64,000 nucleotides of DNA from Mobula hypostoma (taxonomy: Eukaryota). A model generated the notes under the pieces. The model was not told the DNA's origin, searched no databases, and saw nothing but the letters and a program-made list of their open reading frames with translations. Positions 13,888 through 53,712 of the stretch are shown piece after piece. The translations under genes were made by a program, and so were the position numbers. Position 1 is the stretch's first letter; each line of letters begins with the position of its first letter. The stretch is taken from positions 22,756,001 through 22,820,000 of the forward strand of contig NC_086097.1 in the NCBI RefSeq assembly GCF_963921235.1. Reading direction: 5' to 3'.

Positions 13888-14750
13888 TGTTACGTACCCC
13901 GTAACTGGGTTGCCAAACCAGCAGAAATGGATCACTCAGTTGGAGTCTGGAGTACTAGAACTAAGAAAGTTTTATTAAAGAAATAAGCAACACAGTAATT
14001 GAAAGGATAATAAATGCAACAGTTCAGCAATGATAAACACACATGTGCACAGAATTAAGATAACAGGATCAATCAAGCTCTATCGTTGTCTAGGGGTAAA
14101 TGACCAAATTTCAAAGTGACTCAAAGTTCAGTCCAGTTTAGTAGTTCAGTTCGCAGTAATCGTTGCCATGGCGATGGACAACGTGGGGGGAGAGAGTGAG
14201 GGAACAGGAACAACTGATCATTCAGACACGGCTTCACTCACAGACCGGCGAGATGGCTCACAAGTAACTTTTGGGCGGGTCCTTGGTGATGTCACCTGAG
14301 GTCACCGACTGTGACCCCCTCCTCCAGATGCGGTCGATCCTCTGCAGTGAACCCGGCACCCAGACAAGGGCGGACACACACCGGGTTCCCGCTGATCGTA
14401 CCTTTCCACCCTGGCCGTTGTCTGATACTTCTCACCGACTCGTGAGAGGCGTACCGCTTCCAGGGTCTCGTTACCTCGGGTGTCGTGTGTGTCCTGCCTT
14501 AGCGAACCGGTCCCTTTTTATCCCCCTGCTGGGGTATCGTCTGTCCATCACTTCAAACAGTTCAGGGTTCAAAGGGGGAGCCGCTCCAGACAGCTCTCTC
14601 TCCCACGTCCCTTCATTACACATCTCCAGTCGCTGCTCCATTGTTCCTTATCTCTCCTTCCCCTGAGGGCAGGTGGCAGATCACTTGCTGATGTCACTGA
14701 TGCTAATCTAGGCCAGCAAACATCTTAATTTTATGTGTATTCTCGTCACA
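13888..14750 (-). repeat. 3' LTR
   Basis: tgttacgtacccc...tctcgtcaca; about 12 substitutions versus the other LTR by eye; AATAAA on the minus strand near 13972-13977. Confidence 0.95.
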
Positions 14751-17951: not shown

Positions 17952-18814
17952 TGTTACGTACCCCGTAACTGGGTTGCCAAGCCAACAGAAATGGATCACT
18001 CAGTTGGAGTCTGGAGTACTAGAACTAAGAAAGTTTTATTAAAGAAATAAGCAACACAGTAATCGAAAAGATAATAAATGCAACAGTTCAGCAATGATAA
18101 ACACACATGTGCACAGAATTAAGATAACAGGATCAATCAAGCTCTATCGTTGTCTAGGGGTAAATGACCAAATTTCAAAGTGACTCAAAGTTCAGTCCAG
18201 TTTAGTAGTTCAGTTCGCAGTAATCGTTGCCATGGCGATGGACAACGTGGGGGGAGAGAGTGAGGGAACAGGAACAACTGATCATTCAGACACGGCTTCA
18301 CTCACAGACCGGCGAGATGGCTCACAAGTAACTTTTGGGCGGGTCCTTGGTGATGTCACCTGAGGTCACCGACTGTGACCCCCTCCTCCAGATGCGGTCG
18401 ATCCTCTGCAGTGAACCCGGCACCCAGGCAAGGGCGGACACACACCGGGTTCCCGCTGATCGTACCTTTCCACCCTGACCGTTGTCTGATACTTCTCACC
18501 GACTCGTGAGAGGCGTGCCGCTTCCAGGGTCTCGTTACCTCGGGTGTCGTGTGTGTCCTGCCTTAGCGAACCGGTCCCTTTTTATCCCCCTGCTGGTGTA
18601 TTGTCTGTCTATCACTTCAAACAGTTCAGGGTTCAAAGGGGGAGCCGCTCCAGACAGCTCTCTCTCCCACGTCCCTTCATTACACATCTCCAGTCGCTGC
18701 TCCATTGTTCCTTATCTCTCCTTCCCCTGAGGGCAGGTGGCAGACCACTTGCTGATGTCACTGATGCTAACCTAGGCCAGCAAACATCTTAATTTTATGT
18801 GTATTCTCGTCACA
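17952..18814 (-). repeat. 5' LTR
   Basis: 863-bp direct repeat of 13888-14750. Confidence 0.95.
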
Positions 18815-44179: not shown

Positions 44180-46375
44180 TGTGATGACCTCCATTCAGGG
44201 CCTCAAACAGTCCTTCCAGGTGAGGCAATACTTCACCAGCAAATCTGTTGGGGTCACTTACTGTACCCAACTTACTGCAAAAAGGCAACAATTATACCAG
44301 TGCCTAAGAAGAATAATCACATCGACAGTGATGAAATGCTTTGAGAGGCTGGTTTTGTCTAGGCTGAACTCCTGCCTCAGCAAGGACCTGGATCCATTGC
44401 AACTTGTTATCGCCATAACAGGTCAACGGCAGATGCAATCTCAAGGGCTCTCCACACAGCTTTAGACCACCTAGACAACACAAACACCTACGTCAAGATG
44501 CCATCCATCGTCTATAGCTCAGCATTTAATACCATCATTCCCACAATCCTGATTGAGAAATTGCAGAACCTGGGCCTCTGTTCCTCCCTCTGCATTTGGA
44601 TCCTTGACTTCCTAACTGGAAGACCACAGTCTGTGCAGATTGGTGATAACATATCTTTCTCGCTGACGATCAACACTGGCGCACCTCAGGGGTGTGCGCT
44701 TAGCCCACTGCTCTACTCCCTGTATACGCATGACTGTGTGGCTAAACATAGCTCAAATACCATCTATAAATTTGCTGACAATACAACCATTGTTGGTAGA
44801 ATCTCAGGTGGTGACAAGAGGGCGTACAGCAATGAGATATGCCAACTAGTGGAATGGTGCTGCAGCAACAACCTGGCACTCAACATCAGTAAGACAAAAG
44901 AGCTGATTGTGGACTTCAGGAAAGGTAAGATGAAGGAACACATACCAATCCTCATAGAGGGATCAGAAGAGGAGAGAGTGAGCAGCTTCAAGTTCCTGGG
45001 TGTCAAGATCTCTGAGGATCTAACCTGGTCCCAACATATCGATGTAGTTATAAAGAAGGCAAGATAGCAGCTGTACTTTATTAGGAGTTTGAAGACATTT
45101 GGTATGTCAACAAATACTCTCAAAAACTTCAATTGTTGTACCGTGGAGAGCGTTCTGACAGGCTGTATCACTGTCTGGTATGGAGGGGCTACAGCACAGG
45201 ACCGAAAGAAACTGCAGAAGGTTGTAAATCTAGTCAGCTCCATCTTGGGCACCAGCCTACAAGGTACCCAGGACATCTTTAAGGAGCGGTGTCTCAGAAA
45301 GACAGTATCCATTATTAAGGACCTCCAGCACCCAGGGCATGCCCTTTTCTCACTATTACCATCAGCTAGGAGGTACAGAAGCCTGAAGGCACACACTCGG
45401 CGATTCAGGAACAGCTTCTTCCCCTCTGCCATCCGATTCCTAAATGGACACTGAAGCTTTCGACACTACCTCACTTTTTTTTTAATATACAGTATTTCTG
45501 TTTTTGCATGTTTTTTTTAAAATGTATTCAATATATGTAATTGATTTACTTGTTAGTTTATTATTTTTTCTCTCTCTGCTAGATTATGTATTGCATTGAA
45601 CTGCTGCTGCTAAGTTAATAAATTTGACGTCACATGCCGGTGATAATAAACCTGATTCTGATTCTGACTCTGGTGCTGCTTGCTTTACATTCGTGACTGA
45701 CTGTCAAGTGGGGCATCACTTTGTCGAGCACCTCTGCTGCATCCACAACAGGCAGCATTTACCGGTGGCTAACTATTTTAACTTCACTCCCATTCCAACG
45801 TGTCTTTCCACGGCCTCCTCTTTTGCCACAATGAGCCCATTCTCAGGTTTGAGGAGCAACATCTCATAATCCATTTGGGTAGCTTCCAATCTTGTGGCAT
45901 GAACATCGTTTTCTCTAATTTCTGTTAGATTTCCACCTTCCCCTTTCCTCTTCTTCCATTCCCCACTCTGGCTGCCATCTTACCTCTTCTCTTCTCCTTA
46001 CTGCCTATCACCTCTCCGGATCTGATACTCCTTTCCTTTCTCCCATGGTCCACTCTCCTCTCCTATCAGATTCCTTCTTCTTCAGCCCTTTACCTTTTCT
46101 ACCTATCACCTCCCAGCTTCTCATTTCATTCCCCCCCCCGCAACTTCCCTACCCACCCACCTTCCCCCTCACCTGGCTTCACCTACCTCCTTCTAGCTTG
46201 TACTCCTTTCCCTCCACCCACCTTCTTATTCCGGCTGCTTCCCCCTTCCTTTTCAGTCCTGATGAAGAAGCTTCTCAGTCCAAAACATCAACTGTTTATT
46301 CCTTTCCATAGATGCTGTCTGACCTGTTGAATGTGTTGCTCTGTATTTCGAACATCTGCAGAATCTCTTGGGTTT
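44180..46375 (+). mobile_element. Penelope-like element remnant (GIY-YIG endonuclease plus pyrimidine-rich terminal repeat), split by a Rex-type LINE
   Basis: TSIQGLKQSFQVRQYFTSKSVGVTYC | ...HFVEHLCCIHNRQHLPVANYFN...EEQHLIIHLGSFQSCGMNI, followed by a degenerate hammerhead motif at 46255-46293. Confidence 0.8.
44268..45667 (+). mobile_element. 5'-truncated Rex1/Babar-type LINE, RT pseudogene
   Basis: [65 protein letters not shown]; (GATTCT)n tail. Confidence 0.9.
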
Positions 46376-51300: not shown

Positions 51301-51392
51301 TCACAGATCGAGCTCAACAGTATCCTGGCCACACTCGCCCAATTCATTGGCACACTGGTTAATCTCTCTCTTGACCATCAATCCAATATAGA

Positions 51393-51846
51393 TTTGAAGT
51401 AGGTTGCCATGGGATAATTGCGTTCACTTTCCAGAAGTGGCTGCATGACCTTGGCTTCACTAGAAGAGAGATCAAGTCAACCAGCAGGGCTGTAGCTGAG
51501 GCGGCAGAGAAAGGATCAGCATGGGTGTGGAACAAGTATGTCCAGAGGGGTAGATATATGTATACAGTGTATACATATCTTGAAAACCCTTCAGTAGTTG
51601 CATAGATACCTGAAGAGCAGGCCATCTGTTGGATGGAAGTGACCAACAACTCTGATAGAGGCAGATGCCAAGTTTTTAAGCTCACCAGTGGGAGGTGGTG
51701 CTTTAGCACTGCTGGCCTACCACCTTGAGGGAGTCTTGATCATAAGCGGGCCAAAACTCCTGAAGACAGGTGGCAGATCAACTGATGATCCCACAGGTGA
51801 TAGCACAGGACAGTTAACATCTTAGTCCACGTGTATTTTTAACTCA
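51393..51846 (+). mobile_element. 3' fragment of a Hero-like (restriction-like endonuclease) non-LTR retrotransposon
   Basis: Frame from 51393 reads FEVGCHGIIAFTFQKWLHDLGFTRREIKSTSRAVAEAAEKGSAWVWNK, matching the EVGCRG...AE.aS.W.W C-terminus of Hero-clade proteins. This frame is not in the supplied ORF track. Confidence 0.75.
51730..51794 (+). ncRNA. Candidate non-circularly permuted hammerhead ribozyme, probably inactivated in this copy
   Basis: GGAGU-C-UUGAUC ... GGGCC-(A)AAA-CUCC ... GAUCAA-CUGAUGA-UCCC. Stems I and III pair perfectly around the core positions. Confidence 0.6.
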
Positions 51847-53712
51847 GTGTGCCCAATCTATGCAACTTGCTGATGCTGCTATGATGAATCTCTTAAAACC
51901 CCAGTCTCTAACATTGAGAAGGAAAAGACAAGCAGACATTTAGGTTTGTCACCATCTGGAAGATTCCCTTCAAAGCTGACACCTTACTGACTTGGAAAAA
52001 TATCCATGAACGCTATAGTCAATGTGACCAGCGCAAACTGCAGTGGTTCAAGAAGGTGTTTCAGGGCAAATAGACTAGTGTAATAATTTTGGACAGCATC
52101 CAGAAATCAAGGTAATAATACCTTAATTGTTTGCTGTTTAGTAATGTTGACTGAAAGGTAGACATCAGCCAGAACATTAAGAATTGTTCTAAGCTCTTTT
52201 TTCAAAGAGTGCCCTGGGATCTTTTATGTGTGCTGATAAATCAGAAGATTGACTGCTTGAATGTCCCATCCAGAAGTCATCACGGTACATACACGTGGGG
52301 TGGCATGGTGGCGTAGTGGTTGTGCAATTGCCTGACGTTGTCAGTGATCACCATTCACCGATTGGAGTTCGATTCCCGCCACTGTATGTAAAAAGCTTGC
52401 AAGTTCTCCCTGTGATGCGTAGGTTTCCTCTGGGTGCTCCGATTTCCCATGTACCAAAGATGTATGGGTTAGGGTTAGTGAGTCGTGGGCATGCTATGTT
52501 GGTACTCAAAGCATTGTGACATTTGCAGGGTGTTCCTAGGATATCCTTACTGATTCAATTTGATGCAAATGACACATTTCACTGTATGTTTTGACGGTTC
52601 GATATATATGTGACAAGGATGGTGTGGTGACGTTGTACAGGCAACCTGGGTTCAGTTCCTGCTGAGTGTGACCACGTGGATTTCCTTTTGGCTGAAGCAG
52701 TTTCTTCCCACAGCCCAAAGACGTACTGGTTAGTAGGCTAAATGATCATTGCAAATTGTCCCATGATTAGGCTAGGATCAAATTGGGCTGCCGGGTGGCG
52801 TGGCTCAAAGGGCTGAAAGGGTCTATTCCGCACTCTATCTCAATAAATAAATAAAGCTAATCTTAATTTCCATATGCAGTAGTATCCTCAGGACTGCACT
52901 GCAATGCCAGCTGAACTATGTTGCCAACTGTTTGGGATGGGGGTAGAATTCACAACTATCTGACTCTTTAGTGAGTGTTCTACACACTGTGCCACAGCTG
53001 TGGTTATAATGGCCAGTGAAAATTGAAGAGACCCGTGCAATTTTTCAAAACTTATTAGATAGCATTTGTTCTCAAAGCACTTTATCTTTTTAATCAATCC
53101 ATCACCGTATTAGGATTACATCTGATCTTGTAGGTGATGTTTGAAAATCCCAGGATATTTTTTTAAAGTTCAAATGTTATTATTCGACTAGTTGCCAATT
53201 TTCTCAACTTGTTTTCCAAAGGTCCTCCTTTCCAATCTCTCTGGTCTTTTATTTCACAAAAGACAATTATTCTTGATTAGTTTGTGATTACTTTTTTACT
53301 AATCTTTTTTTAGGAGTCTGGAATCTGAAAACAGATGACTGAAATAAAAATTAAATTTCTTAGAACTATTCATCAATCGTTTGAAAGTAGCAATGAACAG
53401 CTTTTACAATGATTGCTGTTGGCTTTTCCTGACGTGAATGATTCCTCATTTATGCTGCGTTGTAAATCATTGTAGAATGAGATCTGAGCTGGGCTGCAGC
53501 CCCAGGGATGCAATGCCATTCCTCAGCAGTGAGCTCTGGGTCCTTTTTGACAGGTGGTGAAGTCTTGGAACAGCAACTATTCTGACATGTCACCAGAAGC
53601 TCCGGTGAGTGCGATTCAGTTGAACTCAATGCATTTTTATTAAGTGTCAACAAGTAGCTTAACCCTCTGGTTCCTGCAGCAAGAAGTTGATAAAATGGTT
53701 TATTTTGTCTCA

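Follow-up and report, generated by a model that had tools for sequence, protein, structure and literature searches.

The 3′ untranslated region (UTR) of a retrotransposon copy in the genome of Mobula hypostoma raises the question of whether a hammerhead ribozyme can be maintained in an animal mobile element when the strands of its catalytic core follow one another in an order that is not a circular permutation of the classical types. The copy lies on the plus strand at positions 51392 to 51845 of a stretch of 64,000 nucleotides (contig NC_086097.1, positions 22,756,001 to 22,820,000 of the forward strand; hereafter, the window) and fits a HERO-like element of the non-LTR type (LTR, long terminal repeat). 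Comparison of this copy with other genomic copies and with distantly related elements reveals a conserved fold and a conserved hammerhead core. The explanation that we favor, with moderate confidence, is that intact members of this family encode a self-cleaving ribozyme.

The first-pass annotation of the window had recognized three strings that would make up the core, and all three were found: GGAGTCTTGATC at 51730–51741, GCGGGCCAAAACTCC at 51746–51760, and GATCAACTGATGATCCCAC at 51776–51794. UUGAUC (51736–51741) is fully complementary to GAUCAA (51776–51781), which stands immediately 5′ of CUGAUGA (51782–51788), and together these strands form stem I. Likewise, GGAGU (51730–51734) is complementary to ACUCC (51756–51760), forming stem III, and a GUC triplet occupies 51733–51735. 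The pairings and the triplet are thus as the annotation described them, and the non-canonical order of the core blocks that it reported (cleavage site, GAAA, CUGAUGA) is equally evident in the letters. Its placement of the site in a 3′ UTR also holds, since the open reading frame (ORF) stops at 51603–51605 in the frame of the window, or at about 51610 as judged by the intact copy L031.

Position 51753 of the window is an A, where a hammerhead needs G12; with this substitution the window copy is probably inactive. CUGANGA occurs 58 times in the window, both strands taken together, and a relaxed scan of both strands (RAAA accepted, with minima of 4 bp in stem I and 3 bp in stem III) returned the present site and one other weak match, on the minus strand. 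Taken alone, the match in the window is weak and within chance; taken with its relatives, it is far beyond chance.

Occurrence and core conservation among relatives

A protein alignment with 21 relatives was used to fetch metagenome DNA, which yielded 80 loci at 31–47% protein identity, 66 of them with at least 150 nucleotides (nt) downstream of the ORF. A strict scan (CUGANGA; GAAA 15–70 nt upstream; U and then any base but G; minimum lengths of 4 bp for stem I and 3 bp for stem III) found a match in 46 of these 66 downstream regions and in none of the controls, which comprised 66 reverse complements, 66 upstream coding stretches, and 1,320 dinucleotide shuffles. A covariance model built with helices III and IV only, the E-values of which are rough, matched at E ≤ 0.01 in 62 of the 80 loci, 59 of which belong to the 66 with sufficient downstream DNA; loci that the strict scan had missed were among them. 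In the related metagenome loci the motif is always on the sense strand, directly after the ORF. The stems themselves vary in sequence: the 43 motif-bearing loci that were parsed, which come from 29 record sets, contain 32 distinct stem I and 26 distinct stem III sequences. Since dozens of distant relatives keep the motif, it is very likely functional.

Sixty sequences were aligned with the helix III/IV model (alignment A4), and helices I and II are therefore absent from the model that placed them. Every catalytic position of the hammerhead is nearly fixed in this alignment. U16.1, A13, A14, and A15.1 are each present in 60 of 60 sequences and G12 in 57, with the three exceptions being an A that follows a C, as in the window. 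The CUGANGA block is similarly constrained (C3 in 58, U4 in 60, G5 in 60, A6 in 59, G8 in 59, and A9 in 60 of 60), with the exception of N7, which is variable (U in 33, A in 15, C in 9, and G in 3). Position 17 is C in 22, A in 19, U in 18, and G in one. G10.1 was identified in 55 of 56 sequences, C11.1 in 54 of 60, and the pair G16.2–C15.2 in 58 of 60. Hammerhead catalysis fixes the pairs A15.1–U16.1 and G10.1–C11.1. Here, the former is present in all 60 sequences and the latter in 49 (G–U in a further 5), and neither covaries, while the pairs adjoining them do. On these counts, CUGANGA, GAAA, U16.1, a non-G at position 17, and the pairs G10.1–C11.1 and A15.1–U16.1 are near-invariant.

The A at 51753 had been attributed to CpG decay in a family that otherwise carries GAAA, and copies from the same genome bear this out. 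In 30 aligned copies, G is present at this position in 27 and A in the window copy and two others. UC, GAAA, and CUGAUGA are all intact in 52 of 56 distinct other genomic copies, and the remaining four comprise two with AAAA, one with UUGAUGA, and one with CUAAUGA. The window copy is accordingly a decayed one, in a family that in its standard form has the hammerhead core complete. The same change of G12 to A (CG to CA) arose independently in unrelated families (L096, L109, L113, and the window at 51753), a pattern expected of CpG decay, and it is the commonest loss of a core residue in these motifs.

Fold and covariation

One architecture was found throughout the parsed loci. From 5′ to 3′, the strands are those of stem II (5′), helix IV (5′), a linker, stem III (5′), U followed by non-G, and stem I (5′), and then an A-rich linker, stem II (3′), GAAA, stem III (3′), a second linker, helix IV (3′), stem I (3′), and CUGANGA. 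In the window these parts are positioned as follows, with the grounds for each given in parentheses.

51714–51718, plus strand: 5′ strand of stem II (G10.1 to 10.5), GGCCU in the window and GGCCC in the family, pairing with 51748–51752 (A4 columns 13–17 with 51–55)
51720–51725, plus strand: 5′ strand of helix IV, CCACCU, pairing with 51768–51773 (A4 columns 20–25 with 72–77)
51726–51728, plus strand: linker from helix IV to stem III with conserved G51727 and A51728, proposed as the unbulged strand of a kink-turn (GA end in 27 of 43 parsed loci)
51729–51734, plus strand: 5′ strand of stem III (16.6 to U16.1) (A4 columns 32–37 with 59–65)
51735, plus strand: C17, with predicted cleavage 3′ of the base (51735/51736) (analogy with hammerheads)
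51736–51741, plus strand: 5′ strand of stem I, UUGAUC (covariation)
51742–51747, plus strand: linker from stem I to stem II, AUAAGC, mostly uUAAA in relatives (A-rich conserved columns 48–50)
51748–51752, plus strand: 3′ strand of stem II (11.5 to C11.1), GGGCC (covariation; C11.1 in 54 of 60)
51753–51755, plus strand: core G12, A13, and A14, with G12 replaced by A here (relatives and family copies)
51756–51761, plus strand: 3′ strand of stem III (A15.1 onward), pairing with 51729–51734 (covariation)
51762–51767, plus strand: linker GAAGAC between helices III and IV, proposed as a kink-turn strand with a 3-nt bulge at 51762–51764 (NNN-GA pattern)
51768–51773, plus strand: 3′ strand of helix IV, AGGUGG (covariation)
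51776–51781, plus strand: 3′ strand of stem I, GAUCAA, pairing with 51736–51741 (letters and covariation)
51782–51788, plus strand: CUGAUGA (C3 to A9), the end of the conserved motif (60-sequence alignment)
51789–51845, plus strand: 3′ tail of the element past the motif, 57 nt (genomic copies)

The entry of the chain into the core is at G10.1 and its exit at A9, and the need for a pseudoknotted fold that the first-pass annotation had foreseen is borne out. The linkers are short and conserved in length, with medians of 0 to 5 nt; helix IV follows stem II and the 3′ strand of stem I follows helix IV with medians of 0 nt, and the link between stems I and II has a median of 4 nt. The internal loop between helices III and IV is always asymmetric, and the linker after stem III is often NNUGA. 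A kink-turn sequence pattern (a 3-nt bulge and GA facing GA) was identified in 20 of the 43 parsed loci and in the window family, with the others having a one-sided bulge. In the window, the proposed kink-turn would place G51765 opposite A51728 and A51766 opposite G51727. As in known hammerheads, helices I and II would run side by side from the core to a second three-way junction, formed with helix IV, and helix III would have to fold back for helix IV to reach that junction.

Immediately 5′ of stem II, 20 nt upstream of the motif, many loci (e.g., L042, L044, L055, and L072) have a hairpin, which is at approximately 51690–51713 in the window. In many relatives the six letters of the loop form a palindrome, UGAUCA or UGGCCA; the window family has UUUA there. 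Palindromic loops of this kind could permit loop–loop dimerization.

When the four-helix structure was scored on A4, standard pairs accounted for 93.6% of the total (64.2% in shuffles) and the covariation score was 0.706 (0.183 in shuffles). None of 500 shuffles reached 0.706, a count that is not to be read as a probability because the aligned sequences are related. Slid registers were only 36–47% paired. The first three pairs of helix I were 97.2% paired, with two-sided changes at all three; helix II was 91.4% paired, with two-sided changes at four of five pairs; helix III was 92.5% paired; and helix IV was 94.5% paired, with two-sided changes at six of six pairs. Across helices I to III together, 12 of 14 pairs exhibit two-sided changes, one exhibits one-sided changes, and one is invariant.

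The part of the first-pass annotation that did not withstand this comparison is its stem II, which was drawn between UCCCAC, after CUGAUGA, and GCGGGCC. GGG (51748–51750) and CCC (51790–51792) are present as letters, but their pairing is not conserved: across the 60 relatives the proposed stem is 43.9% paired, compared with 43.5% in shuffles. In its original register the downstream stem is 38.5% paired in the same relatives; when it is anchored next to the core it has 0 bp in 38 of 44 sequences; and its duplex energy is no better than that with permuted partners (z = +0.2). Duplex-energy permutation of the 25 nt upstream of stem III gave z = -11.7 against the GAAA-side linker and z = -9.2 against the linker after stem III (helix IV). 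The sequence after A9 is thus not paired with the GAAA-side strand, and the partner of stem II lies about 70 nt upstream. Because the upstream strand covaries strongly and the downstream strand is at the level of shuffles, we take 51714–51718 as the true partner of stem II. No covariation was detected between the 3′ tail and the GAAA-side strand.

Other candidate helices were also evaluated by duplex-energy permutation. The linker after stem III paired with neither the GAAA-side linker nor the 3′ flank above the null, and nor did the 5′ flank with the 3′ flank. For a closing helix between ACUGC, conserved upstream, and GCAGU downstream, which is plausible in many loci, the outcome was not significant (z = -1.4, with 20 of 300 permutations as low). 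ACUGC occupies A4 columns 7–11, and GCAGU stands approximately 15 nt past CUGANGA (L054, L055, L037, and L082), from where the two could close the gap between A9 and G10.1.

Known hammerheads and competing explanations

The first report of a natural RNA permuted non-circularly dates from 2023 and concerned virus-like RNAs from the environment, with unknown hosts (Eckert et al., 2023; PMC10085705), in keeping with the statement of the first-pass annotation that such hammerheads were already in print. Passages of that paper divide the hammerhead into the blocks S (cleavage site), G (GAAA), and C (CUGANGA with its two adjacent strands), assume that these blocks are uninterruptible, and report that type SGC and, less surely, types CSG and GCS occur naturally and cleave (PMC10085705). 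The same passages describe cleavage in vitro by non-circularly permuted hammerheads that have the cyclic order seen here and a helix bridging stems I and II. In type SGC, the link between stem I and stem II is approximately 3 nt, and an extra helix joins the other sides of these two stems and is connected to the far end of stem III (PMC10085705).

As represented in those passages, type SGC (HRIMA-1 and variants) has in common with the present motif the cyclic order, a short linker between stems I and II (about 3 nt, versus a median of 4 nt here), the bridging helix, and at least two pseudoknots. The two differ in where the chain is opened. In type SGC, the 5′ strand of stem II and the strand of the bridging helix come after CUGANGA, whereas both are at the 5′ end of the present motif; GUCC follows CUGAUGA in the alignment of type SGC, whereas the present motif has no stem II strand there. 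The ends of the RNA are consequently at the far end of stem III in type SGC and inside the core, between A9 and G10.1, in the present motif. Unlike in type SGC, stem III and helix IV are joined here on both strands. Type SGC derives from environmental metatranscriptome contigs linked to hairpin ribozymes and its cleavage has been demonstrated, whereas the present motif is in a protein-coding animal retrotransposon and is known from its sequence. On this comparison, the present motif can be described as type SGC circularly permuted, opened within block C between A9 and G10.1. The text and supplement passages of Eckert et al. contain no link to retrotransposons beyond cited titles (PMC10085705).

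The classical type I, II, and III hammerheads share with the motif the core letters, three helices, G10.1–C11.1, A15.1–U16.1, a free N7, and a non-G at position 17. They differ in that the present strand order is not a circular permutation of types I to III and in that the classical three-way junction is without pseudoknots. Screening with Rfam returned no match at gathering score in the window, no hammerhead at E ≤ 10 around the site, and no match at E ≤ 1 in six loci with intact motifs, which is expected because the motif is a non-circular permutation.

Hammerheads of Penelope-like elements and retrozymes were reportedly also treated by Lunse et al. in 2017. Such hammerheads resemble the present motif in that a core is carried by a retroelement and is conserved in its irregularity at 9/10.1, and differ in that they are classical type I or minimal, unpermuted, and situated in the terminal repeats of another class of retroelement rather than in the 3′ UTR of one with a restriction-like endonuclease (Cervera and de la Pena, 2014; PMC4209133). 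Extra nucleotides at the junction of A9 and G10.1 are described for active natural hammerheads, namely A10 of CChMVd (PMC1636495), and for the hammerheads of Penelope elements (PMC4209133), suggesting that the backbone can leave the core at this point.

Hepatitis delta virus (HDV)-like ribozymes of R2, RTE, and similar non-LTR elements are likewise self-cleaving RNAs within the transcript of an element. According to passages of the source, however, they belong to another class, are at the 5′ end, and release the element from a co-transcript, whereas the present motif is in the 3′ UTR (PMC3774820). Four longer copies of the present element gave no HDV-like match in Rfam, the true 5′ ends of these copies being undefined. 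To our knowledge, no hammerhead core has been reported in the 3′ UTR of R2. Like the present motif, that region is described, in the parts of the source that concern it, as a conserved pseudoknotted RNA domain, there bound by protein, of a related class of element (PMC12222951). In a literature search that extended to few subscription journals, no published description was found of this arrangement or of a hammerhead in elements with a restriction-like endonuclease, and the term ‘type-SGC’ was met only in PMC10085705. Within that coverage, both the arrangement and its genetic setting are not found described.

Collectively, the conserved fold and core lead us to favor a self-cleaving, possibly resealing, hammerhead-type ribozyme in the 3′ UTR of a widespread HERO-like clade of animal retrotransposons. 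Stems I, II, and III would enclose a canonical hammerhead core, and helix IV would tie together the far ends of stems I and II and join stem III through an asymmetric, often kink-turn-like, loop. RNA from intact copies would cut itself after position 17 (51735|51736), 110 nt before the 3′ end of the element. Because stems II, IV, and III would still hold the 5′ product, the products would be expected to stay clamped by approximately 16 bp, giving a held nick that is perhaps religated and no clean release. We infer catalysis, the cleavage site, the kink-turn, and the held nick from the conserved letters and pairings. A more far-reaching version, which we consider rather doubtful, would add a seventh topology to the natural hammerheads, one whose chain for the first time both enters and exits via the core, and would have the motif act in animal cells, where the 3′ UTR of these elements would hold a switch that nicks and reseals reversibly. 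Such a switch could decide whether a transcript is usable as a template for target-primed reverse transcription, for example by cutting RNAs whose tail is unoccupied by the element's own protein.

Several observations weigh against self-cleavage. Both catalysis and the site of cleavage are argued from sequence comparison and analogy. Among 30 genomic copies that include the last 110 nt, none starts at the predicted cut; the 5′ ends of these copies are scattered, all upstream of the motif, and there is therefore no fossil sign of a reverse transcriptase running off a nick. A chain that leaves the core between A9 and G10.1 is without tested precedent, and a cut 110 nt before the 3′ end offers no obvious benefit to an element that is copied from that end. 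A protein that recognizes a hammerhead-shaped fold would produce the same conservation. Seven of the 66 loci (L040, L070, L089, L105, L112, L113, and L114) lack a clear match to the helix III/IV model, one of which (L113; E = 0.087) has a weak match and reads like a decayed copy. The conservation of the core is also partly built into the sample, in that 41 of the 60 aligned sequences were preselected by a scan demanding CUGANGA, GAAA, U, and a non-G at position 17; the 19 sequences outside the seed alignment have C in 7, U in 6, A in 5, and G in one at position 17, and 6 of them had also passed the strict scan, so they are only partly independent. Finally, departures from the core are confined to single copies except in the related L095 and L101, which have U in place of C3 (UUGAAGA) and an otherwise intact core (L095:2207–2315 and L101:2157–2265). 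This U is a possible family-level variant of the core.

The principal alternative is that the motif has the shape of a hammerhead without its cleavage and serves, in the 3′ UTR, as a platform, derived from a hammerhead or convergent with one, that binds the element's own reverse transcriptase or a host protein such as a kink-turn binder. We regard this as less probable than self-cleavage and nevertheless a serious possibility. It would account for the absence of copies that start at the cut site, for a fold in which cleavage products would be predicted to remain together, and for a chain break in the core that is without tested precedent, and the motif stands in the same place as the structured, pseudoknotted, protein-bound 3′ UTR described for R2-type elements (PMC12222951). 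Against it, all the nucleotides of hammerhead chemistry are kept, including a non-G at position 17 (59 of 60) and, without covariation, the pairs A15.1–U16.1 and G10.1–C11.1, while N7 is free.

A family resembling short interspersed nuclear elements (SINEs) also bears on this alternative. Part of its sequence matches the element's 3′ tail, from approximately L021:1866, with 76% identity by BLAST over 66 nt that end near 51822, and the cleavage-site (S) and GAAA (G) blocks are absent from it. Because this family keeps the tail without two of the three core blocks, target-primed reverse transcription may need only the tail and is probably independent of the fold. This hints, if faintly, that the full fold serves a purpose other than reverse transcription.

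Assembly of the core between two RNA molecules or between tandem copies, which the first-pass annotation had raised as a multimeric fold, is, in our assessment, improbable. The small hammerheads of Penelope elements act as dimers, according to a title cited in PMC10085705, and the hairpins with palindromic loops (UGAUCA and UGGCCA) just upstream of the motif in many relatives are consistent with such an assembly. However, all five pairing partners lie within approximately 75 nt and the short, length-conserved linkers fit an intramolecular fold, and the copies are dispersed rather than in tandem. Published type SGC as drawn, with the stretch immediately 3′ of CUGAUGA as a strand of stem II, is more improbable still: the order of the blocks (cleavage site, GAAA, CUGAUGA) matches and the GGG and CCC of the window can pair, whereas in the relatives that pairing is at the level of shuffles and the upstream partner covaries strongly. 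Chance resemblance without conserved function, which might be suggested by the one comparable match in the relaxed scan of the window, is scarcely credible given 59 of 66 distant relatives with covariation and no matches in 1,452 control regions.

The motif breaks the rule that the blocks of a hammerhead stay intact, yet all catalytic nucleotides are kept across lineages with 31–47% protein identity. If it does cleave, a break of the chain at A9/G10.1 can be borne by the hammerhead core, and descriptor-based searches for ribozymes miss a class of arrangements. Self-cleavage would further mean that an animal genome contains a permuted hammerhead, with thousands of copies in a defined gene context; elements with a restriction-like endonuclease would gain a ribozyme in the 3′ UTR beside the known 5′ HDV-like ones; and the purpose of retrotransposon ribozymes would become directly testable. 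R2-type elements are under development for gene insertion and are relatives of the present element, which lends practical interest to a conserved 3′ UTR module for self-processing or protein binding.

Host element, 3′ tail, and neighboring sequences

Two features of the window delimit the host element.

51392–51845, plus strand: 5′-truncated non-LTR retrotransposon, retaining the C-terminal end of the ORF and the 3′ UTR, with the 3′ end ...TTTTTAACTC (comparison with genomic copies)
51392–51610, plus strand: end of the ORF, the last part of a restriction-like endonuclease domain, FEVGCxGF...WVW (protein alignment)

The Mobula hypostoma genome (3.48 Gb) was searched with positions 51360–51900, which returned 1,744 first-look candidates, and the 40 of these that were scored have 93–95% identity over 51392–51846. 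The 29 other copies that were fetched match the window only from 51392 onward, yet match one another further upstream. All 29 finish at ...TTTTTAACTC and continue into unrelated flanks, which diverge after ...TAACTC. As the copies share upstream sequence that the window copy lacks and have differing flanks, the window copy is 5′-truncated and the family is dispersed. A TAACTC-like terminal word is partly repeated at the 3′ junctions of L005, L017, L019, and L022, which resembles elements with short terminal tandem repeats or microhomology priming.

Screening of longer copies against Pfam identified RVT_1 and zf-RVT, and the short ORFs of the window itself left the C-terminal piece without a family in Pfam. 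The C-terminal block of the longer copies comprises a CCHC finger (CxxC...H...C) and the pattern of a restriction-like endonuclease (RPD...ELTVPWE...K..KY...EVGCRGF), the latter read by eye in the alignment and covered by no Pfam match. The layout of the HERO clade, a single ORF with reverse transcriptase, CCHC finger, and C-terminal restriction-like endonuclease, is thus present. The nearest named proteins are from Branchiostoma (64–66%), Lytechinus (62%), and bivalves and fish (approximately 40–45%), and these taxa overlap with the hosts listed for HERO reference elements in passages of PMC7650587. The domain layout and the hosts of the nearest named proteins therefore fit a HERO-like element, and the label is to be read on these two grounds.

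Two copies of the SINE-like family were identified on the plus strand of the window, at 14662–14727 and 18726–18791, with L021:1864–1952 as the corresponding stretch of the host element. The host element and this family look like a pair of partners, one a long interspersed nuclear element and the other a SINE. The window copies belong to near-identical stretches of about 370 nt, 14380–14745 and 18440–18806, which are approximately 4 kb apart and each end in the SINE-like tail; these may be copies of one non-autonomous element or a local duplication.

Neither piles of ends nor joints were present in contigs from four sequencing runs. At L021:1864, three of these runs have loose ends that resemble the upstream sequence of the SINE-like family, and in two of the four the depth over the last ~100 nt is 10–80 times that of the rest of the element. 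Because the loose ends read like the SINE-like family, this rise in depth is uninformative on cleavage. The depth of the four runs appears to resemble low-coverage DNA more than RNA.

A fragment of a different reverse transcriptase element, unrelated to the family studied here, is located on the plus strand of the window at 44363–45454 (Pfam RVT_1, E = 3e-17).

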